Positions 34,622 through 61,576 are shown, counted from the first letter of the stretch. The stretch: DNA of 64,000 nt from Candidatus Thorarchaeota archaeon (GCA_016933575.1 JAFGAR010000064.1:64001-128000), one strand, 5' to 3'. Translations and numbers: made by a program. The notes: generated by a model from the letters alone, not told the origin.

Positions 34622-36484
34622 GTGGAAAGAAATCAACTACTCGCGATTGTTGTGATTGTAGTTGTCGTAGCGGGCGCAGGAGTCGCCTTTGTCTTCATGC
34701 AGCAGCCAGGAAGGCCGCCAGAGAATACTCTGATATGGGAGACAATTGGTAATCCTGACTATATGGACCCTCACGTCAACTATGAGAGCTTCGGTTCGTG
34801 GGTACAATTCAACATATATGAAACGCTATACACATATCCGTGGGATAGCGCTGTAACCGATCCATCGGTTCCATTACTGGCTGCATCAGCACCAGTATTA
34901 TCAGCCGATGGTAAGAACTATACTATTACTCTTCGACAAGGCATCACCTTCCATGACGGCACACCATTCAATGCTAGCTGTGTCAAATGGAATATGGAGC
35001 GTGCGATGAAGATTTTCTACCCAGATGGTCCAGTCTGGATGGTTGCTGAACCACTCGTTGGTGGTGGTGCAGTTGAGGCAGCCGCTTTTGGCGACGGTCC
35101 AACATCTGCAGCATTCAAGGCAGCATTCGACAACTGGGTTGAGAATTCCAGTGCCATCATTGTCATGGACACGTACGTGATTAGATTCCGTCTTGCTGAT
35201 CCTTACCCGGCCTTTATCGCTGCAATTACCTATGAGGTAGGCGCAATGATAAGCCCAACCTACGCTATTGCTCACGCAAGTGATGCAGCTTGGGCAACCT
35301 GGGATGCATATGGTGTTGATTACGGCGAGTATGAGAATCCAATGACTACTCAGACTTGCGGTACTGGCCCATACATGCTTACCAATTGGGTACCCGATCA
35401 GTACATTGAATTAACTCTGTACGAAGACTACTGGAGAACCTCTACCAGCACTGGTGCAGGCTCACTCGAAAAGGTCTTCATTCGAACCAATGAAGATGTC
35501 AACGGCAGGTCATTGAACCTGAGAGCTGGTACAACTGATGCTTGTTACTGGCCAACCACAAACGCTCTAGATATCTGGAGCAATGTAACCGACGATTCCA
35601 CCGATCCAAACATCTTTGTCTCAACTGGTGGTTATAGCTACACTGTAACATTCTTTGGATTCAACATGGGAATCATCAACATGACCACTGGCGCAGTTCT
35701 TGATGAGAAGGTTAGTCCCTTCCAGTGGCTGAACTTCAGGCGCGCAGCATCATGGGCTATGGACTATGAAGCGTTCCTGTCAGCAGCTGTCAATGGATTT
35801 GGTGTCCAGGGTAAGGGATGCATACCCATCGGAATGTTCGGTCATAATGGAAGCGCATACAACTGGGAATACAATCTTACTGCAGCAGTAGAAGAATGGA
35901 ACCTTGCAATGGCTGATCCTAATTTCGTTGATTCACTCAATGAGTTGGACAACCATCTAGTTCTCTACTACAACTCCGGTAACACCGTGAGAGAGCAGGG
36001 CTGTCTATTGCTAGCTGATGGTCTCAATGCAATGTGGGGTGATGACGATGCTGACGACACTGGTCTGGATGCAGCAATGACTGTCACAACCCAGGCACTC
36101 GAATGGTCCAACTATCTAGATGCCATTCGTGAGAAGAGGATGGCAATCTTCTTCGTCGGTTGGGCACCTGACTATGCAGACCCAGACAACTATGTCTATC
36201 CATTCGCATACCACTACGGTACATACGCTCAGAGAATCTCCTACAACGATACTGACGTTAACACCTGGTACGAGGAAGCTAAGATCGAGACTGATGAAAC
36301 CGCTCGAAAGCACTTGTACAACTTGATTCAGGAGAAGCTCGCTGAAGATGCACCCTATCTGTGGATGTACCAAGCTACCGAGTTCAGAACTTGGAGAGCC
36401 TGGCTACACGGTGATGGTTTGGTCTACAACCCAATGCACCAAGCTTACTTCTACCACATGTACAAGACATACCCAACCACATAG
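34622..36484 (+). CDS. oppA: Oligopeptide/dipeptide ABC transporter substrate-binding protein (family 5)
   Basis: N-terminal anchor, MDPH, IYETLY, LRQGITFHDGTPFNA, GTGPY, GWAPDYADPDNY; GGAGG SD. Confidence 0.93.
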   Translation: MERNQLLAIVVIVVVVAGAGVAFVFMQQPGRPPENTLIWETIGNPDYMDPHVNYESFGSWVQFNIYETLYTYPWDSAVTDPSVPLLAASAPVLSADGKNYTITLRQGITFHDGTPFNASCVKWNMERAMKIFYPDGPVWMVAEPLVGGGAVEAAAFGDGPTSAAFKAAFDNWVENSSAIIVMDTYVIRFRLADPYPAFIAAITYEVGAMISPTYAIAHASDAAWATWDAYGVDYGEYENPMTTQTCGTGPYMLTNWVPDQYIELTLYEDYWRTSTSTGAGSLEKVFIRTNEDVNGRSLNLRAGTTDACYWPTTNALDIWSNVTDDSTDPNIFVSTGGYSYTVTFFGFNMGIINMTTGAVLDEKVSPFQWLNFRRAASWAMDYEAFLSAAVNGFGVQGKGCIPIGMFGHNGSAYNWEYNLTAAVEEWNLAMADPNFVDSLNELDNHLVLYYNSGNTVREQGCLLLADGLNAMWGDDDADDTGLDAAMTVTTQALEWSNYLDAIREKRMAIFFVGWAPDYADPDNYVYPFAYHYGTYAQRISYNDTDVNTWYEEAKIETDETARKHLYNLIQEKLAEDAPYLWMYQATEFRTWRAWLHGDGLVYNPMHQAYFYHMYKTYPTT

Positions 36485-36514: not shown

Positions 36515-36554
36515 GATGCAGAGGCTTCGGCCTCTGTCATCCTTTTCTTTTTTC
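36515..36554 (+). terminator. cUUCGg-tetraloop hairpin + U-tract terminator after the substrate-binding protein gene
   Basis: CAGAGGC-TTCG-GCCTCTG, then CCTTTTCTTTTTT. Confidence 0.85.
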
Positions 36555-36737
36555 AAACTTCACTTTCCTGAGTGATTACTATTCAAACTCAATTACTCAA
36601 CAAGGGAGTAGAACTCTGTTATTGCCCTGATATGATAGTTAAAAAAGTCAGTATCAATTTGTGATTAGAATAATTTTGCTTAGTGGCGAATCATTATATT
36701 ATCCAAAAAACAAACATAATCGATAGTTGGTGAAAAA

Positions 36738-37643
36738 ATGAAGGACCTATCATCCATAACTGCTACAGAGTTATTCACTAAGTGGTGGGATGAACGCTGG
36801 ATTCGTGGAATAGTTCTCATGTTGATTCCTATTGGCATAATTGACACTGTGTTTACTATTAGCATTGCACAGCTCTATGGAATTGAAGCTGAGTTCAATC
36901 CCATTACCCGGTTCTTTCTTTCCTCATCATTCTGGTTCTTATGGCCAATTCTTAACATAAGTGGTTTCATGTTCTTCTGTATGATGGCCGGGTCATATTA
37001 CTTGCATTCTAGACTAAAACTAGGTGGCCCCGATACATCTTGGATTTCAGTAATTATCGCATTGCGCGTTGCTATGGTTGGCTATAATGTCACATTCTAC
37101 TACCTACCCTTTGTCATTACGGTGTACCCTCCATTTTGGGCTGCCTTCATCAGCTTTGTAATGACATTCTTCCTAATGAACAACCTTCTAAAACGCCAAA
37201 ATGATATTAGTTGGGAACAAACAAAATACACAATCACCAGTAAATACATCAACTATCGAGATTCAAAATTGATCTCTTCTGCTGGAATCCCTGAACAAGA
37301 TAAGGAAGATACAAGCTCCATCAAGGAAGATCTCAAGAAAGAGGTTCTTTCTGGCATACCGAAAAAGAATCAACCTCTATGGAAAAATCCTTGGGTAAAA
37401 CGAGTTGTATATCTTAGCAGTGCAGCCTTTTCGTTTGTATTAATGGGGATGGCGATTGAATTCATTAGCAACATTTCAGGATTATCAACATGGAACGACC
37501 AACGTGGTGCCTATTTTGTACTTAATGAGATAACAGGCCCTCCTGTTATGGCCTCTTTTATTGCGATATTGTTCTTCATGGGGCTATCATTATTCTTTAT
37601 TCTTAGAGCATTTTCTACTACTCAAGAAATTGACCTTGATTAA
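36738..37643 (+). CDS. Membrane protein: DUF5658-like N-terminal part + C-terminal 'LNEVTGP' module
   Basis: IIDTVFT...EAEFNPI motif; last ~90 aa homologous to 37773-38051 and to the C-terminus of 60143-61576. Confidence 0.8.
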   Translation: MKDLSSITATELFTKWWDERWIRGIVLMLIPIGIIDTVFTISIAQLYGIEAEFNPITRFFLSSSFWFLWPILNISGFMFFCMMAGSYYLHSRLKLGGPDTSWISVIIALRVAMVGYNVTFYYLPFVITVYPPFWAAFISFVMTFFLMNNLLKRQNDISWEQTKYTITSKYINYRDSKLISSAGIPEQDKEDTSSIKEDLKKEVLSGIPKKNQPLWKNPWVKRVVYLSSAAFSFVLMGMAIEFISNISGLSTWNDQRGAYFVLNEITGPPVMASFIAILFFMGLSLFFILRAFSTTQEIDLD

Positions 37644-37772
37644 ACAGGAAATGGCCAACACCTACGAAGTAAGTTTTTCTACGCATATAGTAGTATTATT
37701 AACTGAATCATTAAGAGTCATTCAAACGTGAGTATATCACTCTTTGAGTGCAAATCGAAGTGATGATTGATT

Positions 37773-38051
37773 ATGTCACATGACGCAAAACCTTGGTATA
37801 AGAATATCTGGCTACAAAGAATCTTCTATATTACATGTGCTATATTATCCTTGCCAGCGATGAGCTTTGCTATTCAATTAACATCCGATGCCACCGGTTT
37901 ATCGAACTTTAATTATGGTGTTTTCATCTTAAATGAGGTAACAGGTCCAATTGTCATGCTCAATTTTATTTTCATTCTCTTCTTCATTGGTCTGTGTATG
38001 GTATTCATCTTCAAGGCATTCAGTATACAAGAAGACTTGCCTATCGATTGA
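37773..38051 (+). CDS. Small 2-TM membrane protein, stand-alone 'LNEVTGP' module
   Basis: Clear paralogy with two other ORFs in the window. Confidence 0.85.
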   Translation: MSHDAKPWYKNIWLQRIFYITCAILSLPAMSFAIQLTSDATGLSNFNYGVFILNEVTGPIVMLNFIFILFFIGLCMVFIFKAFSIQEDLPID

Positions 38052-42167: not shown

Positions 42168-42581
42168 ATGAAAAAGATTGATGAAGTATTTCCAGATATT
42201 GGTATTGCCCCAGCTTTGATAGTCACTATTGTAATTTCAGCAGCTCTTCAGTTGAGTGGTTCCTGGACTGCAATGTTTGTCGCTGGAGTTCTTGGATCAT
42301 TATTTGTGAGACGCCACCGGAAGGCATTCTTAGTAGGTTTCTTGGGCGTTTTTATTGGGTGGTCGATTCTCTTTACATATGTGATTCTGACAGCTCAGGC
42401 TTTAGTTATTGCAGATTTTTTCCTTAGTCAACTTGGTCTTAGCGGATTAGGATGGTTGGTCATTGTCATCAGCTGCCTTATTGGTGGTCTTCTTGGAGGA
42501 TTTGGAGCACTCCTTGGAAGGTCTGTTGTAGAACTTGTGGATGGTCTTATCCCGCAAGAGCGTGAAAAGGAAGTAGAGTAG
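42168..42581 (+). CDS. Hypothetical membrane protein (Gly-rich TMs)
   Basis: Hydrophobic 137-aa ORF 4 bp downstream of the acylase. Confidence 0.75.
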   Translation: MKKIDEVFPDIGIAPALIVTIVISAALQLSGSWTAMFVAGVLGSLFVRRHRKAFLVGFLGVFIGWSILFTYVILTAQALVIADFFLSQLGLSGLGWLVIVISCLIGGLLGGFGALLGRSVVELVDGLIPQEREKEVE

Positions 42582-45575: not shown

Positions 45576-46601
45576 ATGAAACTGAGAGATTATATTATTC
45601 GGAGGCTCCTGTTAGCTATCCCAGTAGTAATCGGTGTCTTAGCTATAACCTTCGTTCTTTCTTATATTGTTGGTAATCCAATCACTCTTTATACCACAGA
45701 ACGAACAAGACCCGAGGCTCTAGCTGGTATCATAGCTGAACACGGGCTGGACAGACCTATCTACATCCAATTCTTCTACTATTTACGAGATTTAATACTA
45801 GGCGACTGGGGTTATTCTCGAACTGCGAGAATGGATGTGACAGAAGCAATTTCTTGGAAGCTTCCAGCAACCATTGAGCTTGCTCTTGTAGCAATGATCT
45901 TTGCTGTAATTGTTGGAATTCCTCTTGGAATTGTTTCCGCAACGAAAAAAGACAAAGCACCAGATCATATCACAAGAATAGTAGCACTAGCTGGTGTCAG
46001 TATGCCCATTTTCTGGTTCGCACTGATCCTCAAGTATCTCTTCTTTTATCAGTTCTTTACTTGGGGTCTACCCTATCTTCCAGAAGGTGGTCGGTATTCC
46101 TATGAGTACATACCATATACACCAATTACGAATTTCGTACTAGTCGATTCTATTATCACACTCAATCCTGTCTTACTCTTCGATGCAGCAATACATTTGA
46201 TATTACCGGGTTTTGCCCTAGGATATCTGACCTTGGCCATCATTACAAGAATGATGCGTTCAAGTATGCTGGAAGTGTTGAAGGAGGATTACATAACTCT
46301 GGCAAGATCCAAAGGTCTTCGTGAGCGAGTAGTTATCTATAAGCACGCACTTCGCAATGCAATGATTCCCACTGTAACAGTAATTGGTCTTGCATTCGGT
46401 GGTCTGATGACTGGAGCAGTTCTGACAGAGACTATCTTTAGCTGGCCTGGTCTTGGTAGATGGTCAACTCGTGCGATATTGACCTCAGATATACCAAGTA
46501 TCAATGCATTCACTCTACTGGTAGCATTCATCTTCGTGGGTGCCAACCTAATAGTGGACTTAATCTACGGGACATTGGATCCAAGGATTCGGTACGGATA
46601 G
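45576..46601 (+). CDS. oppB: Peptide ABC transporter permease (OppB/DppB)
   Basis: YIIRRLL, GLDRP, LPATIELA, DYITLARSKGL..HALRNA, DPRIRY. Confidence 0.95.
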   Translation: MKLRDYIIRRLLLAIPVVIGVLAITFVLSYIVGNPITLYTTERTRPEALAGIIAEHGLDRPIYIQFFYYLRDLILGDWGYSRTARMDVTEAISWKLPATIELALVAMIFAVIVGIPLGIVSATKKDKAPDHITRIVALAGVSMPIFWFALILKYLFFYQFFTWGLPYLPEGGRYSYEYIPYTPITNFVLVDSIITLNPVLLFDAAIHLILPGFALGYLTLAIITRMMRSSMLEVLKEDYITLARSKGLRERVVIYKHALRNAMIPTVTVIGLAFGGLMTGAVLTETIFSWPGLGRWSTRAILTSDIPSINAFTLLVAFIFVGANLIVDLIYGTLDPRIRYG

Positions 46602-46615
46602 GAGGCTGAAAGAAA

Positions 46616-47911
46616 ATGACACAAACAGATACATGGAGTGCCGCAATTTCTGGTTCTATTGAGCAAGAGGAAACACCACAATCAATTAACGCGCTCTGTG
46701 TTGTACAGATTATTGTTGCTCTCATCGGAATGTTAACAGGAGTTCTTGCTTTTACGAATTCCTTCATTCTATATACTGCTGAATCTATCCCATTGGTTGG
46801 AGCTCTGGGATCCATGATGGTAACAGCACTACCAATGGTCATTATAGGCTTATTACTCATCCGAATTGGTCTAGATGCGCGAAAGCTGGAAACCTATGCA
46901 TTCTCATGGATTATCTATGGCAATGCAATAATGATACTTCTAACCTTCATGGCTGGAGGAGTCTTCCTCTACTCAGGGATAGCAAATGTCGCTGTTGTGG
47001 CGATGCTCTTTATCCCTCAGGTAAAAGAGTACTGGTGGGATCTTTTCAGGGAAGATATGGGCCCTCGAGCAAAAGAGACAAGGTACATGTTTTACCTAAT
47101 CCGAAGAAGTCCTCTAGTGATTGCTGGAATTGCTATTATCGTATTCTATGTCTTTCTAGCTTTAGCAGCTCCATGGATTACTCCTTATGGTCCAACTGAA
47201 CGCAACTGGTATGAAACACTACAACCTCCCAGTGCAACACATCTTTGGGGCACTGACCAGAATGGCGGTGATGTTTTCAGTATGGTAATTTGGGCTACGC
47301 AGATAGATCTTAAGATCGCAATTTCTGTTGTTGCTGTAGCACTTATCATGGGATCATTAGTCGGTGCAGCAGCTGGTTACTTTGGAGGCGCTGTTGACGA
47401 AGTCGTAATGAGAATTACCGACGTCTTCTTTGCCTTCCCGGGTCTTATCTTGGCTATGGCAATTGTAGCTGCACTTGGTCAGAGAAACCTTGACAACATC
47501 AGTATTGCTCTGATGTTAGTGTGGTGGCCAACCTATGCTCGACTTGTAAGAGGCCAAGTCCTTATCGAACGAGAGAAGCTTTACGTCGAAGCTGCACGAT
47601 CTGTTGGAGCTTCAGATGTGAGAATTCTAATATTCCACATTCTACCTAATACAATCCAACCAGTAATTGTACAAGCAACTCTGGATATGGGTGGTGTTCT
47701 GCTAACTGCAGCTGGTCTGAGCTTCATCGGATTCGGAGCCGAAGCCGGAACCGCGGAATGGGGCTGGATGATATCTCAGGGTCAGAACCACTTCATGAAC
47801 TACTGGGTGACATTCTTCCCTGGAATGGCAATTCTCATGTGCGCACTCTCATTCAATCTTGTTGGTGATGGAGTTCGTGACATTCTAGATCCCAAGCTGC
47901 GGAGGCGCTAG
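46616..47911 (+). CDS. oppC: Peptide ABC transporter permease (OppC/DppC) with extra N-terminal ~4-TM domain
   Basis: HLWGTDQNGGD, MRITDVFFAFP, YVEAARSVGAS, LSFIGFG, GDGVRDILDPK. Confidence 0.94.
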   Translation: MTQTDTWSAAISGSIEQEETPQSINALCVVQIIVALIGMLTGVLAFTNSFILYTAESIPLVGALGSMMVTALPMVIIGLLLIRIGLDARKLETYAFSWIIYGNAIMILLTFMAGGVFLYSGIANVAVVAMLFIPQVKEYWWDLFREDMGPRAKETRYMFYLIRRSPLVIAGIAIIVFYVFLALAAPWITPYGPTERNWYETLQPPSATHLWGTDQNGGDVFSMVIWATQIDLKIAISVVAVALIMGSLVGAAAGYFGGAVDEVVMRITDVFFAFPGLILAMAIVAALGQRNLDNISIALMLVWWPTYARLVRGQVLIEREKLYVEAARSVGASDVRILIFHILPNTIQPVIVQATLDMGGVLLTAAGLSFIGFGAEAGTAEWGWMISQGQNHFMNYWVTFFPGMAILMCALSFNLVGDGVRDILDPKLRRR

Positions 47912-47927
47912 ATTAGGAGTTGATATC

Positions 47928-49142
47928 ATGGCCATAGACGAAACTTCACAGAGTACAGAAAAATCTGAGACTGCTCTTCAACTAGATCCTACAATCGTAC
48001 TGGATGTTCGTGATCTTAAAACGAACTTCTATACATATGAAGGAGTTGTGAAGGCCTTGGATGGAGTTACAGTTCAACTACGAACTGGAGACACTCTTGC
48101 GTTAGTAGGTGAAACTGGGTGTGGCAAGAGTGTAACTGCAAAGTCAATCATGCGGCTCGTCGACTCCCCCGGAAGAATTGAAGCTGGACAGGTTATCTTT
48201 CAGGACATTGAACCTGATGGTGAACATGTCTTCAAGGATCTTCTGAAAGTCTCCGAAGCTGAGATGAGGGAGATTCGTGGTAATAAAATCTCTATTGTCT
48301 TTCAAGACCCTGCAACCTATCCGAATCCCGTATTCAAGATAGGTGACCAGATTGCTGAAGTCATTGCTCTTCATCAAGACCTATCTCTGGAGATTCTCCA
48401 GGACAAGATAGAGTCAATGGAGGAAGCGTTGAAACATGCTGATGGTCCTACTGCTGACGATATCTCAATCCGTCTTGAAGAACTCCGAGAGCAACTCAGC
48501 TCTCCTCCAAAACCAACAGACTCAGAAACAAAGAAAGCAGCCAAACGTAAGGCAATTGAGATGCTTAATCTCGTCCGAATGCCTTCTGCAGCTGAGATTG
48601 CCAACCAGTATCCTCATGAACTATCTGGTGGAATGCGCCAGAGAGCTCTGATTGCTATGTCGTTATCATGTAATCCACGGATTCTGATAGCCGATGAAGC
48701 AACGACAGCATTAGATGTAACAGTTCAAGCACAGGTGCTCAAGCTGCTTAATGAACTCAAATCAGAACTCGATGCATCTATCATCATCATTACTCATGAC
48801 CTTGGTGTTGTTGCTGAAACGTGCACTCAGGTGGCAGTAATGTACGCAGGTGTGGTTGTCGAATACACCAATACTGAGGAGTTGTTTTCTGATCCGATAC
48901 ATCCCTATACTTCAGGTCTTCTTGATGCAATTCCCAAGCTTACTGTGAAAGTGGAGAAACTGTCGCAGATTATGGGCACTGTACCTAATCTGATTAATCC
49001 ACCAACTGGATGCAGGTTCCATCCACGATGTGAGTTTGCTACAGAACAATGTAAGCAACAGAGACCTCCACGAGAGGAAATGAAACCTGGTCATTGGGTT
49101 GAATGTTGGCATCCTCAGGGTTCAATGCTACGGAGGAAATGA
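47928..49142 (+). CDS. oppD: Peptide ABC transporter ATP-binding protein (OppD/DppD)
   Basis: [39 protein letters not shown]. Confidence 0.95.
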   Translation: MAIDETSQSTEKSETALQLDPTIVLDVRDLKTNFYTYEGVVKALDGVTVQLRTGDTLALVGETGCGKSVTAKSIMRLVDSPGRIEAGQVIFQDIEPDGEHVFKDLLKVSEAEMREIRGNKISIVFQDPATYPNPVFKIGDQIAEVIALHQDLSLEILQDKIESMEEALKHADGPTADDISIRLEELREQLSSPPKPTDSETKKAAKRKAIEMLNLVRMPSAAEIANQYPHELSGGMRQRALIAMSLSCNPRILIADEATTALDVTVQAQVLKLLNELKSELDASIIIITHDLGVVAETCTQVAVMYAGVVVEYTNTEELFSDPIHPYTSGLLDAIPKLTVKVEKLSQIMGTVPNLINPPTGCRFHPRCEFATEQCKQQRPPREEMKPGHWVECWHPQGSMLRRK

Positions 49143-49145
49143 ATT

Positions 49146-50186
49146 ATGTCGTATGGAGTACACGGTGATAAACTAATAGAAGTCAAGAACCTGAAGAAAT
49201 TCTTTCCTCTAAGTGGTGGAGTGTTTAGAAAGGTTCTCGGTTATGTGAGAGCTGTTGACGATATCTCTTTTGATATCTTTAAGGGTGAAACACTTGGTCT
49301 TGTTGGCGAATCCGGTTGTGGAAAGACCACAGCTGGTAGAACAATTCTAAGGTTGATTCCTGCGACAGCGGGTGAGATTCTCTTTGAAGGAGAAGACATT
49401 GTTAAGATGAAGCGAGGAGATCTAAAAGATCTCCGACGTAACATGAGTATTGTCTTCCAAGATCCCATGGCATCTCTTGATCCTCGTTTGACTATCAAGA
49501 ATGCTGTTGGTGAACCTCTTCTTGTGAACGGAATTGCGCGTGGTCACAGACTGCGTAATATGGTACTCGAGCTTCTTGAGAAAGTTGGTCTGAATGAGGA
49601 TCACCTGAATAGATTCCCTCACGAGTTCTCAGGAGGTCAAAGACAAAGAATCTGCATAGCGCGAGCTCTTGCTTTGAGACCAAAATTCATTGTAATGGAT
49701 GAACCAACATCCAGCACTGATGTCTCAGTTCAAGCTCAGACATTGAATCTTATGAAGGACCTACAGAAGGAGTTCGACCTTACTTATCTCTTCATCAGCC
49801 ATAATCTCAGTGTAGTAAAACACATGTCTGATAGAGTGGCTGTGATGTATTTGGGTAAGATTGTCGAAATGACTCCCAAGGATATCTTCAAGCAAGCTAT
49901 GCATCCATACTCTGCTGCACTAGTATCAGCAGTTCCTGTTCCAGATCCATCTCTGAGAGGACGTGCCGAGGTTCTAGCAGGGGAAGTACCAAGTCCTATC
50001 AACCCACCAAGCGGTTGTCGATTCCATCCTCGATGTAGGTTTGCTACAGAACGATGTAGTGAAGAAATTCCAGAGCTTCGCGATATGGGTGATGGTCACC
50101 TTGTGGCATGTCACTATGCTGGAGAGCTAGATCTTGGACATATTGAGGAATTAATTCCTGAAAGTGGAACAACTGTTCAAGTGTAG
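49146..50186 (+). CDS. oppF: Peptide ABC transporter ATP-binding protein (OppF/DppF)
   Basis: [39 protein letters not shown]. Confidence 0.95.
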
Positions 50187-50499: not shown

Positions 50500-50838
50500 T
50501 TGCTTATCAAAGATATCGAACGTGGCTTACTCATAGCTACAGGTCTACTTATTTTGGATCTAGTTATTGGATTCATTATCAATATAATCAATCCACTCAT
50601 TCTTGCTTCTTCAACAGCAGGTGGGATAGCATTCCTCGAAGTTGGTATTGCCTTAATTGTAGGCGGCTGTTTAATGGCTAGACAACCCTTGGATAATAAG
50701 GATCGCTACACTGACAGTGGAGAAGATACACCTGCATGGAGAATGGCAAAACTCGGCAGAGTTATTCTAGTTACTGGAGCAATCCTCTTCCTATACACTG
50801 CAATAATTGCTCTTGCAGGACTCTACTCAATATTCTAG
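50500..50838 (+). CDS. Hypothetical membrane protein (3 TM)
   Basis: GAGG SD; three hydrophobic segments. Confidence 0.7.
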   Translation: MLIKDIERGLLIATGLLILDLVIGFIINIINPLILASSTAGGIAFLEVGIALIVGGCLMARQPLDNKDRYTDSGEDTPAWRMAKLGRVILVTGAILFLYTAIIALAGLYSIF

Positions 50839-50846
50839 AGTGGAAT

Positions 50847-51614
50847 CTAGAGTTTCAATCCCTCTTCCTTCTTCCTTGTTTTCAGGAACAAATGCTTTAG
50901 AGTATATGCCCCTCCAATGAGGATAACTGGTCCGAGAACAAAGAAGACCATCAATGCAACAGGCATCGAAACAGTTGAGATTGGAACGAATAAGTATGTA
51001 TAGGCGAATCCTATGAACAATGTGAATGTATAAGCCAATACTGGAAATATCTCTTCTCCCCAAGGAGCAAGGCAAAGTGAAATGATTCCTATGATCATTA
51101 ATTTCTTTATCCATTTCTGGATTGATCTTTGAGATATTCTGGCATATGCTAGGTCTCCAATAGTTAGTGTTTCGCAATTTTGTTCCACTTGCCACTCGAA
51201 CAATTGATTTGAAACCTCTAACTCTCCTGGCCCTCGAATAACGAAGACTGATAGGATTAGGAGGACCAGAGACGTACCTATTAATTGGTAGCTCTGGAAG
51301 AGAATATAAACGAGGATAACAGGAATTAGCCCAAGAGCAACGCCTAGAATCAATGTTCCGGTCATTGTCCGATTCATCATGAAATTTCTGAATCCTTCAG
51401 ATGCCTTCAGATAGTCTCCATAGACGACATTCTTCATTATCCACCGATGTGACTCACAGTTCGTGTATTGCTTCTTACCAGAGGTGTCTGGTTCACCAAG
51501 ACGATTAACCAAGGGTATAATGAATTCATTGACTGAAACTGATTGTCTATACCAATAATAGGCTACTAACAAAGATAGAGCCCCAAGGAGGATAAGACCC
51601 ACTGTCATGAACAC
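50847..51614 (-). CDS. Hypothetical membrane protein
   Basis: 255-aa ORF with several TM segments. Confidence 0.75.
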   Translation of the reverse strand: MFMTVGLILLGALSLLVAYYWYRQSVSVNEFIIPLVNRLGEPDTSGKKQYTNCESHRWIMKNVVYGDYLKASEGFRNFMMNRTMTGTLILGVALGLIPVILVYILFQSYQLIGTSLVLLILSVFVIRGPGELEVSNQLFEWQVEQNCETLTIGDLAYARISQRSIQKWIKKLMIIGIISLCLAPWGEEIFPVLAYTFTLFIGFAYTYLFVPISTVSMPVALMVFFVLGPVILIGGAYTLKHLFLKTRKKEEGLKL

Positions 51615-51621
51615 CTAGAGG

Positions 51622-52449
51622 TCACCCTTTCATTTTTCTCTCAAGTACACCTAACCAGATGTCAACTAATAATCCTAAGTATGGTTCATCATTAGGAGTT
51701 ACACGTGAACCAACTAATAGATATACATCACCTAGCATCTTTGTTGGTTTTCTCTTACCAACCTTGAGTGTGACATCCTCGCCTGGTAATCTCACCAGAA
51801 AACCATGTTCATAGAATACTCTTGCTTGGTCAGAAAAATCATAGTCAAGATTCCCAATCGGTTCAGGATGCGTTATTAGTTCCGCTCGGTTCAAAAGTAC
51901 GTCAATGTAAAGAGATTCAAAAGCATAATTAGGAATTAGTCGTCTAGTATCAGGAAGTCCCCACTTTCTCATTGTCAGTTGACTTTGTTCAATGAACCCC
52001 GAAAAGTCTCCACCTTCTCCTTCTATCATAAGTCTTACGCAATCATCAAATGAAACTACAACATTGTTTGGCTGAACTTCCCATCTTTTGATACCCTTTG
52101 GATTGCTTATCTTTTCCGAGCTCTGATCCCAAGTGCAAAGCGGAATTGTTGACATCGCAAGCATCTTCTCAGGTTCCCAGATCTTACGCTCCATCATTTT
52201 CCATAATCTATCATTGACGACAAAGAGTGAGACCGAAACTGGTAGTAGTGCATTTACATTCTTCTTCAGAAAATCATCAATACCTCCAATAACGATCAGC
52301 TGGTCTATAATATTCTCTAATTGTTCATTGGAAATTATGACCTCATCATTGTTATCTAGAGCTACAGATTGCTTGTCTGTCAACCTAAAATCTATGTCAA
52401 ATTCATCTACTAGTTTTCGATATGCTTTTGCAGGATGTTCCGTTCTCAT
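51622..52449 (-). CDS. Hypothetical soluble protein
   Basis: 275-aa ORF, co-oriented and 7 bp from the next gene; no motif recognised. Confidence 0.75.
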   Translation of the reverse strand: MRTEHPAKAYRKLVDEFDIDFRLTDKQSVALDNNDEVIISNEQLENIIDQLIVIGGIDDFLKKNVNALLPVSVSLFVVNDRLWKMMERKIWEPEKMLAMSTIPLCTWDQSSEKISNPKGIKRWEVQPNNVVVSFDDCVRLMIEGEGGDFSGFIEQSQLTMRKWGLPDTRRLIPNYAFESLYIDVLLNRAELITHPEPIGNLDYDFSDQARVFYEHGFLVRLPGEDVTLKVGKRKPTKMLGDVYLLVGSRVTPNDEPYLGLLVDIWLGVLERKMKG

Positions 52450-53838: not shown

Positions 53839-54924
53839 TTATTCTTCAGATATTTCGCTCCATCGATGACATCTAATCCAGTGGTCTGGTTCAACTTCTC
53901 TATCTTCTGGCACTTGTTCCTTACAGATATCAATTGCATATTGACAACGTGGATGAAATGGGCAACCTGTTGGTAAACATGCCAAGTCTGGCGGATCGCC
54001 AGGAATCCCTCGAAGGCGTGGTCTTTTGCCTGCTTTCATTTGCATCATTGCTATCGTTGGAAATGATGACATCAATCCCATGGTGTATGGATGTCGAGGA
54101 TTGTGAAACATCTGAACTGCAGGTCCCGACTCTAGAATCTTTCCGCCATACATTACAGCTACGCGATCTGCTAGTTCTGCAATGACTCCTGCATCATGAC
54201 TGATTAAGAGAAGAGAAACGTCGAACTCTTCTTTTATCATTCTCAGAACGTTCAGTATCTGTCGCTGCATTGTGACATCTAAGGCTGAAGTTGGTTCATC
54301 TGCTATCACCATGTATGGTCCAGCTATCAGTGCCATAGCTATCAGAATTCGTTGGCTCTCTCCACCACTGAAGCAGCCTGGATCTAAGACAAACCTGATT
54401 CCTGCATCAGCAAGTTGAACGATTCCAAGATATTCAAGAACTTTCTTTTTGAGTTCGATAAGCCGTATGTCTTCCTCATGGACTTCTATTGGCTCTGCAG
54501 TCTGATGACCTATGCTATGTTGTGGATTCAATGCATGTCCAAGTCCTTGAGGTATCATACTTATTTCCCTACCACGAATCTTGACGAGTTCCTCTTGTGG
54601 AAGTCTTGTTAGTTCTTTTCCCCTGAATGTTATTTTACCACGAATCCCCGGTCTATCAATCTCCCCATCAAGACCCTTATCGAATGCTTTTCTGAGATTT
54701 GGATCATTTGAAGCACCAGCTGCAAATCTAGCAACTTTTTCAAAAAGTCCAATGATTGAAAGTGCCATACTAGTCTTTCCCGATCCACTCTCTCCTAAAA
54801 GACCCAGGCACTCGCCTTCCTTGACTGTCAATGATACATCATCTACAGCCCGAATAAGGCCTTTATTCGATGGATAGTATGCCTTCAGATTTTCAATGAT
54901 GAGTATCGGATCACCCTTAGTCAT
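53839..54924 (-). CDS. Orphan OppD-like ABC ATPase
   Basis: GESGSGKT, FSGGESQR, IADEPTS, ISHD, GCPFHPRC. Confidence 0.9.
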   Translation of the reverse strand: MTKGDPILIIENLKAYYPSNKGLIRAVDDVSLTVKEGECLGLLGESGSGKTSMALSIIGLFEKVARFAAGASNDPNLRKAFDKGLDGEIDRPGIRGKITFRGKELTRLPQEELVKIRGREISMIPQGLGHALNPQHSIGHQTAEPIEVHEEDIRLIELKKKVLEYLGIVQLADAGIRFVLDPGCFSGGESQRILIAMALIAGPYMVIADEPTSALDVTMQRQILNVLRMIKEEFDVSLLLISHDAGVIAELADRVAVMYGGKILESGPAVQMFHNPRHPYTMGLMSSFPTIAMMQMKAGKRPRLRGIPGDPPDLACLPTGCPFHPRCQYAIDICKEQVPEDREVEPDHWIRCHRWSEISEE

Positions 54925-58133: not shown

Positions 58134-58511
58134 CTAAGATTCATACTTTTTGATTTTTTTACGCAAAGTATAGGATCGGTACGTTCTGATTGGTGCCCAA
58201 ATAGTTAGTGGAGCAATCATGATGATTAGAATGAATGCCATCCAAAATCCATTCTGATAGATTGGATTCATGTAGAACAGCACCAAGAACGGAAGTAGTG
58301 TTGTTGAAAAAATTACAAAAAAGATTGAACTAACCAGAAAATCGTTAAAATGTGCAGCATCGTAACATCCACTTGAGCACCACATTCCCCTTCGAAATAT
58401 ATCGTTTTTCCAATCTTCCCCCTCAAGAGATCCACACCATCTGCACCTTACTGCTTTCTTTGGGTCCACTGTGACCAACAAACTGACCCTCCTTTGAACG
58501 ATTAGTGGCAA
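58134..58511 (-). CDS. Small membrane protein with N-terminal Cys4 zinc finger
   Basis: CRWC..WCSSGC followed by 2 TM. Confidence 0.65.
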   Translation of the reverse strand: MPLIVQRRVSLLVTVDPKKAVRCRWCGSLEGEDWKNDIFRRGMWCSSGCYDAAHFNDFLVSSIFFVIFSTTLLPFLVLFYMNPIYQNGFWMAFILIIMIAPLTIWAPIRTYRSYTLRKKIKKYES

Positions 58512-58960: not shown

Positions 58961-60085
58961 CTACCATTTTGGCAGTTCTTCATATCTATGGCACATCACA
59001 AAATGCCCATCCTCAACCTCTCGGTATTCAGGTTTCTTCTCACGACAGACATCCTGAGCGAACTCGCATCTATCTTTGAATGGACATCCAATGATGATTT
59101 CAGCAAGATCTGGAGGTTTCCCGGGAATCCCTCTGATCCTTAATCCCTTTTCCTTTACCTTTCTGATGACCTCCATGGAGGGATTACTCATAATGAAAGC
59201 CCTTGTAAATGGATGCCCCGGTGATGTCATGATAGTTGCAGTACTACCAAACTCAACGATGTGTCCTGCTGTCATTACCGCGACCTTATCGCATGTCTGA
59301 GATATTGTGCCCTGATTATTGCTTATCATTAGCATTGACAAGTCCATTTCTTCTCTAGCTATTTGGATGGCTTCAAGAATTCGCAACTGAATAGCCATAT
59401 CTACTGCAGTAGTAGGTTCGTCTGCGATGAATAGAGCTGGATCTGGGACCAGAGCCATAGCAATTAGTACTCGCTGATCTTCACCTACACTGAATTGACG
59501 TGGTTTCATACCTTTTCGAATATCAACATCTCCCAACTCAATGAGGTCAAGAGTTTGAAGTACTTTCTTCATGACACGAATCTCATTCAGTGTATTATCT
59601 TCATCATGAGCATAGAGACTCTCCGCAGTCTGCTCCTCAATAGTAGAATACGGATTCAGTGATTTAGTTGATCCCTGCGGCACGTAGGTGATCTCAGCAC
59701 CTCTTATCTCTCTATACTCCTTTTCATCAAGAGTAAGCAGATCCTTCCCTTTGAACCAGATGTGCCCCTCCACTCCTGGAAGGTCTTCGCCTATATCCTT
59801 CGAGGTAAGCCCTTTTTTGTTTGCCTCATCTCGTAGTTTCCATAGCCGTTTGTTCTCTTCATTTGCAGCAGTTGAGGCGAAGTATCGTGAGAGATTATCA
59901 AAGATGCCTAGAATTGCGAGAGCAACAGTTGTCTTGCCTGCTCCTGACTCTCCGAAAAGACCAACTGATTCTCCCTTTCGAACTTCAAAACTGATATCAT
60001 TCACTGCTCGAATGAGACCCTTCTTTGATGTATAGAATGCCTTGAGTCCTTCAACTTTGAGTACTACATCATCATCAACGGTCAT
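58961..60085 (-). CDS. Orphan OppD-like ABC ATPase with degenerate signature and H-switch
   Basis: GESGAGKT, FSVGEDQR, IADEPTT, ISNN, GCPFKDRC. Confidence 0.88.
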   Translation of the reverse strand: MTVDDDVVLKVEGLKAFYTSKKGLIRAVNDISFEVRKGESVGLFGESGAGKTTVALAILGIFDNLSRYFASTAANEENKRLWKLRDEANKKGLTSKDIGEDLPGVEGHIWFKGKDLLTLDEKEYREIRGAEITYVPQGSTKSLNPYSTIEEQTAESLYAHDEDNTLNEIRVMKKVLQTLDLIELGDVDIRKGMKPRQFSVGEDQRVLIAMALVPDPALFIADEPTTAVDMAIQLRILEAIQIAREEMDLSMLMISNNQGTISQTCDKVAVMTAGHIVEFGSTATIMTSPGHPFTRAFIMSNPSMEVIRKVKEKGLRIRGIPGKPPDLAEIIIGCPFKDRCEFAQDVCREKKPEYREVEDGHFVMCHRYEELPKW

Positions 60086-60142: not shown

Positions 60143-61576
60143 TCAAATTGGTATTTCATCATCATCAATTGTGAAGGCCTTGTAAATGAAAGCCATACAG
60201 AGACCTATGAAAAAGATGATGATCATTATGTTTATCATCACTCCAGGTCCTGTCACATCATTTAGAATAAAGTACGGTTGGTTGATTCCCCATTGGGTCA
60301 AACCTGTAAGGAAACTGACAATCTCGATAGATGCCATCATAACTATCATGGACATTACTGAACCGAATAGACAGACCACTCTCTTAGTCCATACATGTTT
60401 GTACCAAGGCTTTCCTTTCAATCCCACTCGTTTCTCAGCTTCATACCAAAGTATTCCCCCTGTAAAGGAAACTGTCAAGTTCAAGAGATAGAACGGTATA
60501 TAGTACAGTACATTAGGAAACCCAAATTCAATTGCAAAATTCGGAATTTCATGATAGTAGACTGCTTCATGCGATGCTGCCCAATACACAAGAGACATCC
60601 AAAAAATCTGAAATAGAAGGATATGATATGAGGCTCTACCGACCCTCTGAACAAACCTCTGTACAGAACTTGTTGCTTTTTGCGGAATAGACATCATGGC
60701 CGCGAGAAAGAGTAACGCTGCATAGCCATAGAATAAGAGGGTATAATCGCCTCGAAAGATTACATCGATGAGTGAGAATGAGTCACCAACTATTCCTGGA
60801 ATTGACGAAAAGAAATGAGTCGTATAATCAGTCATGAATATCAGAGAGATTGGTACGTAGATACCCATGAACCAATTCCGCTTGTCAAACAGATTATACC
60901 CTTTCGAGAACCAGAGTCCCAAACCTATTGCAGGCAAAAAGAATAGAACAATTTGACGTATGATCGATACAAGAAATCCTTCAAGTTGACTCTCGAAAGG
61001 AAGCGGGAAAACAAAATGCATCAATAATTGTAGACTCAGCTCACTCAAAAAGCATAGAATTATGGTAATCTTGGGATATTTTGTGAATGACCAATAGACT
61101 AGTGGGAATACTAGAATCGAGCTGAATAGAAGAAAGATGAACCAGTTTCCAGGCCCCCAGAACGGAAGATATAGCAGGAGTAAAAATACACTGGTGTCTA
61201 GATATCCGAAATATAATCCGATAAGAATTGATGCCATATATAGAATAAGGAATGGAAAGACATAACGTACAATCTTGCGTTTGAAATATTCTTTTGTGTA
61301 GAGGTCTTTTAGGTCTGGAGAAGCAGTGTATTTGAATGAATACGCCATATTAAATCCCATTACTATAAGAAAGAATGGTATGGACAATCTCTCCCAGAAG
61401 AGACTACCAAGATATCCTTTGATCTCCCAAGTCAAGCTATGGTCCATTACGACAAAGGCAATAGCAACAGCTTTGAGAACATCAAGCTGAAAATAGTACG
61501 GTCTCTTACCACCATCTTCTTGTTCTCGTTCTTCTTCTATTTCTTCTGGCGATGTTTTCTCGTAAATCTCTGCCAA
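60143..61576 (-). CDS. Acyltransferase-3 family protein fused to C-terminal 'LNEVTGP' module
   Basis: FQLDVLKAVAIAFVVMDH, SIPFFLIVMG, RKIVRYVFP, PGNWF, GRASYHILLFQ; last ~90 aa homologous to 37773-38051. Confidence 0.88.
   Translation of the reverse strand: MAEIYEKTSPEEIEEEREQEDGGKRPYYFQLDVLKAVAIAFVVMDHSLTWEIKGYLGSLFWERLSIPFFLIVMGFNMAYSFKYTASPDLKDLYTKEYFKRKIVRYVFPFLILYMASILIGLYFGYLDTSVFLLLLYLPFWGPGNWFIFLLFSSILVFPLVYWSFTKYPKITIILCFLSELSLQLLMHFVFPLPFESQLEGFLVSIIRQIVLFFLPAIGLGLWFSKGYNLFDKRNWFMGIYVPISLIFMTDYTTHFFSSIPGIVGDSFSLIDVIFRGDYTLLFYGYAALLFLAAMMSIPQKATSSVQRFVQRVGRASYHILLFQIFWMSLVYWAASHEAVYYHEIPNFAIEFGFPNVLYYIPFYLLNLTVSFTGGILWYEAEKRVGLKGKPWYKHVWTKRVVCLFGSVMSMIVMMASIEIVSFLTGLTQWGINQPYFILNDVTGPGVMINIMIIIFFIGLCMAFIYKAFTIDDDEIPI

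Follow-up and report, generated by a model that had tools for sequence, protein, structure and literature searches.

Transporters and membrane enzymes can carry small accessory membrane subunits, such as KdpF, AcrZ, CydX, and DctQ, the small subunit of TRAP transporters, and we know of no fusions of these subunits to unrelated enzymes. On secreted proteins, the PGF-CTERM (archaeosortase) and PEP-CTERM (exosortase) domains consist of one helix and a basic tail, and in group II ECF transporters one energizing module is shared by several competing S-components. Acyltransferase-3 proteins are built on a 10-helix AT3 core, to which the AT3-SGNH members OafA, OafB, and OatA add C-terminal membrane helix material; in OafB this is one helix (TMH11) bearing a periplasmic SGNH domain (PMC9833829).

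The module described here, a helical hairpin encoded three times in a 64,000-nucleotide stretch of DNA from a Candidatus Thorarchaeota archaeon (GCA_016933575.1, JAFGAR010000064.1:64001-128000; below, the window), can be compared with each of these systems. Like the accessory subunits, it is a short, conserved helical element encoded beside a transporter operon, has no catalytic motif, and presumably works through helix packing; it might bind an Opp permease. Those subunits, however, form separate families, whereas the hairpin has no significant match in Pfam or NCBIfam, and the only trace of DctQ in our searches was one weak structural row in the ESM Atlas. With the PGF-CTERM and PEP-CTERM domains it shares a charged tail, a conserved membrane element at the C-terminus, and a short motif (TGP in the hairpin) that immediately precedes a helix. 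Assignment to these sorting domains was nevertheless rejected, as the hairpin has two helices, an acidic tail, and hosts that are polytopic or, for the free copy, absent, and NCBIfam returned no family at E ≤ 1 for the three bearer proteins of the window. The sorting tag suggested by the first-pass annotation is unsupported as a general role: the same scan was empty, and the tail motif is found on none of the non-module proteins among the 3438 ORFs of the genome that holds the window (G000). The likeness to group II ECF transporters is an analogy of logic, in that different membrane proteins may use one docking surface on an ABC-type machine; the hairpin has no sequence or fold relation to them, and its contact with an ABC machine is hypothetical. 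The acyltransferase fusion of the window shares with AT3-SGNH proteins the 10-helix core and the extra C-terminal membrane helix material, but it adds two helices with both ends predicted to be cytoplasmic and no extracytoplasmic domain, and these two helices also occur as a free protein. Pfam gives no SGNH match in this 477-aa protein, whose extension comprises the two helices and a 9-aa tail.

Three ORFs of the window have in common a segment of ~88 aa, and the homology of the three segments, as the first-pass annotation had asserted, is confirmed far above chance. The three-way alignment has 40-45% identity and 27 invariant columns, and in composition-adjusted BLASTP the free copy matches the C-terminus of the acyltransferase-3 protein with an E of 4e-20 and that of a 301-aa protein, here termed class A, with an E of 9e-24. 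Copy 1 (37374-37643, + strand; alignment, BLASTP, and AF2 model) is fused to class A, with helix 1 at roughly residues 218-256, the loop at 257-266, helix 2 at 267-293, and the tail STTQEIDLD. Copy 2 is a free gene of 92 aa, class B (37773-38051, +; ORF and database match), which begins 129 nt downstream of class A. Copy 3 (60143-60412, -; ORF, alignment, AF2 model, and BLASTP) forms the C-terminus of the acyltransferase-3 protein, with model helices at 395-432 and 443-469 and the tail TIDDDEIPI. Exactly three copies are present in G000 (3.47 Mb, 85.5% complete). The stand-alone copy that had been annotated does exist, but its start is shifted: the ATG at 37773 is the likely start, because a 100%-identical database protein (98% query coverage) has 92 aa, and the TTG at 37767 (94 aa) is the alternative.

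Comparison of the copies shows a self-contained module of ~85 aa, in which two helices that each cross the membrane form a hairpin; it is confined to one Thorarchaeota family. Its order is a basic aromatic cap (PWYK-x-W-x-KR), helix 1, a loop of ~15-20 aa, helix 2, the motif (K/R)AF, and a tail of 9-12 aa that is acidic and ends in a hydrophobic residue. In both AF2 models, those of class A and of the acyltransferase fusion, the module is a long helical hairpin with a block-mean pLDDT of about 85-96. Per copy there are 4.0 K/R residues in the cap before helix 1 versus 0.56 in the interhelix loop, and because of this difference the positive-inside rule predicts that both ends are cytoplasmic and the loop is outside. 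Across the family, R10 and F80 alone are invariant, and G36 and N51 are nearly so. Subtypes are apparent in the loop and tail. Type 1 copies have FWNE-x-S-x-P and the tail TTEGAW, which is the tail in most genera. Type 2 copies, which include all three in the window, have F-x-LNE-x-TGP, a conserved E/Q in helix 1, and, in the subclade of the window, an acidic tail of the form D/E-(I/L/F)P(V/I/L)(D); the helix-1 carboxylate shows no conservation in type 1. Type 3 copies are free hairpins with the tail EEGGW. The consensus quoted in the first-pass annotation, with LNE-x-TGP and an acidic tail, therefore describes the type 2 subclade and not the family, most members of which end in TTEGAW.

No known domain names the module, and this was confirmed at the level of sequence and of fold. 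The sole Pfam match was a subthreshold one to FtsL_2 on the free copy (E of 0.15), and a profile of 28 copies had 0 matches among PDB sequences at E ≤ 1. Foldseek with the class A model returned nothing at E ≤ 0.001; VIA-align in wide mode returned generic helical hairpins, with Z scores up to 8.7 that lie inside the tool's background for helical proteins. Both searches barely covered the N-domain alone. The acyltransferase model had weak HGSNAT-type top neighbors in the fold search and none for the hairpin. In the ESM Atlas, the free copy fell among unnamed or generic two-helix clusters with scores below 0.9, and the search with class A led back to its own Thorarchaeota cluster.

The range of the module was assessed with the 28-sequence profile in 85 other genomes of the same GTDB family and 314 other Asgard genomes. 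It was matched in 72 of the 85, spanning 15 of 16 genera, and the 314 others gave three marginal matches at E about 0.005, none credible. A 3-sequence profile, run exhaustively as an HMM against 1.84 billion representatives, yielded 19 matches, and the same profile detected the module in one genus only; it was too narrow to capture the range seen with 28 sequences. Three architectures emerge. In architecture A, nearly universal in the family, the hairpin follows the class A N-domain. In architecture B, a free hairpin of 89-135 aa lies 9-130 nt downstream of A; it was found in seven genera (the g1 subclade of the window and g15, g18, g21, g22, g23, and g26), class A being directly followed by an orthologue in G001, G003, G009, and G012, with a spacing of 9-51 nt in other genera. 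An unlinked variant, B', is the type 3 free hairpin of five genomes in two genera. Architecture C, the acyltransferase fusion, is present in nine species of g1 and throughout most of g25. When longer proteins were searched for, no fusion partner of the hairpin came to light beyond class A and acyltransferase-3. The free gene is real and under purifying selection, as pN is 0.21-0.35 while pS is saturated at 0.73-0.84. All of this comparative evidence comes from metagenome-assembled genomes of one archaeal family, and it supports the earlier description: the two-helix hairpin has no family name, has been shuffled, and is found both by itself and on two polytopic membrane proteins that are unrelated to each other.

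Class A (36738-37643, +; ORF and AF2) comprises a four-helix domain, two cytoplasmic helices, and the C-terminal hairpin, and its AF2 model has a pLDDT of 85.7 and a pTM of 0.61. The N-terminal domain (36738-37268, +), delimited by alignments and a Pfam scan of relatives, has invariant residues that include D36, T40, E52, N54, G85, Y87, Y88, R92, and R110. Its profile occurs once per genome in 62 of the 85 family genomes, always in an ORF of 285-346 aa, and this single-copy domain has the range of the module plus one match in the sister family. The label DUF5658-like, taken from the first-pass annotation, is plausible for the N-terminal four-helix part only. The class A protein of the window matches 0 Pfam families at E ≤ 10 and none in NCBIfam; weak DUF5658 matches occur in 9 of 22 relatives (best E of 2.7e-4), PF18902 is precomputed on 18 of 92 database relatives, and the ESM feature score is 0.80. 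The literature searched made no mention of DUF5658. The likeness to DUF5658 (PF18902) is a property of the fusion partner and not of the hairpin. The hairpin as a diverged repeat of that domain was rejected, with a profile-profile hhalign probability of 0.9% and just 18 aligned columns. A divergent ABC permease was also considered for the six-helix class A protein and set aside, as neither it nor its 22 relatives match BPD_transp_1 at E ≤ 10, whereas the true OppB and OppC of the window do so with E values of 2e-41 and 6e-33.

The recurring genomic context of the module, at an Opp-type importer locus, is our main new result. The conserved upstream neighbor of class A is a gene for an SBP_bac_5 binding protein with an N-terminal membrane anchor (34622-36484, +; Pfam, NCBIfam, synteny, and hydropathy), and in 18 of the 20 loci compared, which represent 14 genera, class A follows the SBP gene of an Opp-type importer. 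The 20-kb loci of these 20 genomes have a common order: ODP-flavodoxin, U194, U137, a penicillin-amidase-family gene, and one or two N-acetylornithine-carbamoyltransferase-like genes; then B, A, and SBP_bac_5; then oppB, oppC, oppD, oppF, and two small ORFs; and last M255 and U275. The SBP5-A-(B) group is directly divergent from oppB in most loci, and all genes are codirectional in G041. The window holds the same genes rearranged, with the oppB-oppC-oppD-oppF operon (45576-50186, +; Pfam and synteny) separated from SBP5-A-(B). At the far end of the operon lies M255 (50847-51614, -; Pfam, synteny, and hydropathy), a polytopic membrane protein without a family, and M255 and U275 close the opp cluster in most genera. 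In two genomes, G046 and G052 (93% and 95% complete), the class A N-domain is missing and the free hairpin is retained beside oppB. Of the 86 family genomes, G000 included, 70 have the module together with SBP5, 11 have neither, and 5 are discordant, mostly contig-end cases. The double absences include both g24 genomes (97% complete) and G092 (99%). In addition, all five type 3 free hairpins are divergent to an M255 paralogue (loci L119-L123). The module is thus tightly associated with the Opp-type importer locus. In the literature searched, we found nothing useful on Opp systems of Thorarchaeota.

Several other features of this region deserve mention. M255 has about 6-7 predicted helices, and U275 (51622-52449, -) has none; neither has a Pfam or NCBIfam family. 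Small ORFs without a family and with predicted membrane helices lie at 50500-50838 (+, 112 aa), 42168-42581 (+, 137 aa), and 58134-58511 (-, 125 aa); in other genera, too, ORFs sized like the first lie 3' of oppF, and U137 is a repeated neighbor of the amidase gene. Ahead of class A, the SBP5 stop codon is closely followed by a GC hairpin and T-run that resemble a terminator (36518-36555, +; read in the sequence) and could be an intracluster terminator or attenuator. In the G046 locus L106 (G046:C12), SBP5 and class A are missing, and two tandem nucleotidyltransferase-domain genes (289 and 294 aa; 352-2179, -) lie directly 3' of the free hairpin.

Viewed more broadly, positions 34622-63819 of the window form a supercluster of ~30 kb that is conserved across 14 genera (loci L129-L148). 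Its genes are those for SBP5, class A, the free hairpin, oppBCDF, M255/U275, and two N-acetylornithine-carbamoyltransferase-like proteins, together with a penicillin-amidase-family gene, ODP-flavodoxin, rubrerythrin, two orphan OppD-like ATPases, an MFS transporter, and a C45 acyltransferase/hydrolase. It looks like an island for the uptake and processing of peptides or acyl-amino acids. The SBP5 proteins of the G000 subclade are 52-55% identical to those of g25 and about 45% identical to those of most species of their own genus, g1; for M255 the values are 35-44% and 24-31%, respectively. Unlike SBP5 and M255, the acyltransferase tree holds g1 together. One possibility is that the whole locus was replaced or exchanged in a block.

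The 477-aa acyltransferase ORF spans 60143-61576 (-), with its Acyl_transf_3 domain at 60413-61576 (-). The PF01757 match (E of 2.2e-13; 50.4 bits against a cutoff of 31) covers residues 30-371 on profile positions 3-322 of 326, and the AF2 model of the fusion has a pLDDT of 85.4 and a pTM of 0.83. The junction, AEKRVGLKGKPWYKHVWTKR, comes after the tenth core helix and therefore agrees with the cytoplasmic C-terminus of the 10-helix AT3 core (PMC9833829). Orthologues with the module have about 472-502 aa and those without it about 382-399 aa; the hairpin-less ones include proteins of about 60% identity. In the module tree, all acyltransferase hairpins, the A and B copies of the subclade of the window, and a few other type 2 class A copies form one clade with 99% SH-aLRT support. 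In the tree of acyltransferase domains, g25 is sister to g1 and effectively all fused, its sole unfused row being an ORF cut at the locus end; the unfused g1 proteins make up one derived clade of 13 species, plus G013. With g25 as the outgroup, the fusion looks ancestral to the g1 and g25 acyltransferases and lost once or twice within g1, since g25 is fused and the unfused g1 forms are derived.

The state of the acyltransferase hairpin varies with the subtype of class A. A full-length hairpin co-occurs with type 2 class A in 6 of 6 g1 genomes, and with type 1 class A it is absent (12 genomes) or, in G015 and G024, retained with a 13-aa loop deletion and a changed tail; these are related genomes, however, and represent few independent events. 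G018 is the exception, with a type-2-like class A and yet an acyltransferase without the hairpin. In g1 the acyltransferase lies within the same extended cluster, and an orphan OppD-like ATPase always follows it, hairpin or not; in g25 the fusion lies away from the opp cluster. In the window this ATPase (58961-60085, -; Pfam/NCBIfam and motifs) is immediately 3' of the fusion and has a degenerate signature, FSVGE, and an H-loop without His (ISNN). A specific link between the hairpin and this ATPase was rejected, as the adjacency holds regardless of the hairpin and is absent in g25. The second orphan OppD-like ATPase of the window (53839-54924) retains FSGGE and ISHD.

We infer, with less confidence than would make it probable, that the hairpin is a docking or assembly element of a membrane complex around the Opp-type importer, where it would bind a shared membrane partner, with the free copy as a subunit without cargo. 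Its ancestral site is the C-terminus of the single-copy DUF5658-like protein, encoded 3' of the importer SBP gene. Duplication of the 3' end of the class A gene produced the free hairpin gene just downstream, and one hairpin copy was grafted onto the acyltransferase-3. The hairpin might pack through its membrane helices, aided by the conserved loop and tail, on a shared partner from the same supercluster, for which OppB/OppC, the membrane anchor of the SBP, M255, and another hairpin copy are candidates. Such docking would keep both the acyltransferase and the DUF5658-like domain in place at the transporter, and the free copy, as the same subunit lacking cargo, would fill or compete for the same site.

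Several lines of evidence point toward docking. The module is linked to the importer because SBP5-A-(B) lies by oppBCDF, the free hairpin lies by oppB in G046 and G052, and the module and SBP5 are present together. The M255 paralogue next to all five type 3 hairpins provides a second, independent context, and the 99% clade and the tracking of class A subtype by the acyltransferase-hairpin state suggest coupling between the bearers. The linkage of bearers proposed in the first-pass annotation is therefore plausible, as they belong to one conserved supercluster and the hairpin state of the acyltransferase follows the subtype at the other locus, but the "envelope-modification complex" in which they had been placed is unsupported, the context being an Opp/Dpp-type ABC importer, amidases, and carbamoyltransferases, with no glycan or envelope genes. 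Other observations weigh against docking. Synteny, co-loss of adjacent genes, and subtype covariation could stem from common descent or from transfer of the entire locus, because the data come from one family and the SBP5 and M255 of the subclade are closer to g25. The g25 acyltransferase fusion is distant from the opp cluster, and G018 combines a type-2-like class A with a hairpin-less acyltransferase. The terminator-like hairpin after the SBP gene bears on the putative cotranscription of that gene with class A.

The AF2 model of the fusion would also suit packing of the hairpin on its own host, with no need of a shared partner. Under this alternative, the main rival to docking and somewhat less likely than it, the hairpin is a cis-acting add-on that stabilizes the membrane core of its host, shields a lipid-exposed face, or adjusts a pore; the free copy serves class A alone as a detached subunit, and the acyltransferase graft is an unrelated reuse. 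The confident placement of the hairpin in the acyltransferase model agrees with this, as does the position of the free gene, nearly always directly 3' of class A, and acyltransferase-3 proteins of other lineages have extra C-terminal helices as well (PMC9833829). A cis role fits poorly, however, with the free hairpin kept by oppB in two genomes that have no class A, with type 3 copies that adjoin the M255 paralogue far from class A, and with acyltransferase orthologues at about 60% identity that do without the hairpin, and the strong conservation of the loop and C-terminal tail exceeds what a packing helix pair requires.

That conservation raises the further question of whether the tail itself is the functional element. 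The extreme C-terminus, TTEGAW, is among the best-conserved parts across genera, and the tail changes as a block between subtypes, so the hairpin could mainly be an anchor that displays a cytoplasmic linear motif (...EGAW or acidic-ΦPΦ) to a single soluble partner; this might be an ABC ATPase, a degron reader or protease, or an adaptor for trafficking. Two orphan OppD-like ATPases are encoded in the same cluster, one of them right after the acyltransferase fusion. We regard this reading as decidedly improbable: the adjacency of acyltransferase and ATPase is independent of the hairpin and is lost in g25, the confinement of the motif to module proteins in G000 means that it is not a general signal, and the outside loop and both helices are conserved as well as the tail. 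A pore or ring, in which the hairpin would oligomerize like an ATP synthase c-subunit or a viroporin and conduct ions or small solutes alone, is extremely improbable, for although c-subunit hairpins (9itm_H, TM of 0.66 on the target; 4v1f, Z of 7.7) are among the best small structural matches and type 2 copies have the helix-1 E/Q, the comparison with the c-subunit is a generic hairpin superposition within the stated background Z range of the tool and without a Pfam match, the carboxylate is not conserved in type 1, and fusion to large polytopic proteins suits a ring poorly.

Returning to docking at the importer, the link between class A and the Opp-type importer provides a first functional handle on the DUF5658-like protein and flags a conserved 30-kb island, putatively for peptides or acyl-amino acids, in Thorarchaeota. 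Mobile interaction modules embedded in the membrane are rarely recognized because short hydrophobic domains escape family databases, and here three architectures, two or three subtypes, and a conserved partner set make the question testable in an Asgard lineage. If the hairpin acts in cis only, it would be an ordinary lineage-specific extension. In its strongest form, which we think unlikely, the docking reading would make the hairpin a "membrane dockerin," a portable two-helix tag that plugs the DUF5658-like protein and the acyltransferase-3 into one complex centered on the ABC importer, with matching subtypes deciding what docks and the cargo-free copy setting occupancy. Were this so, the import of substrates and their chemical processing, such as acylation or deacylation, would take place at one membrane machine.
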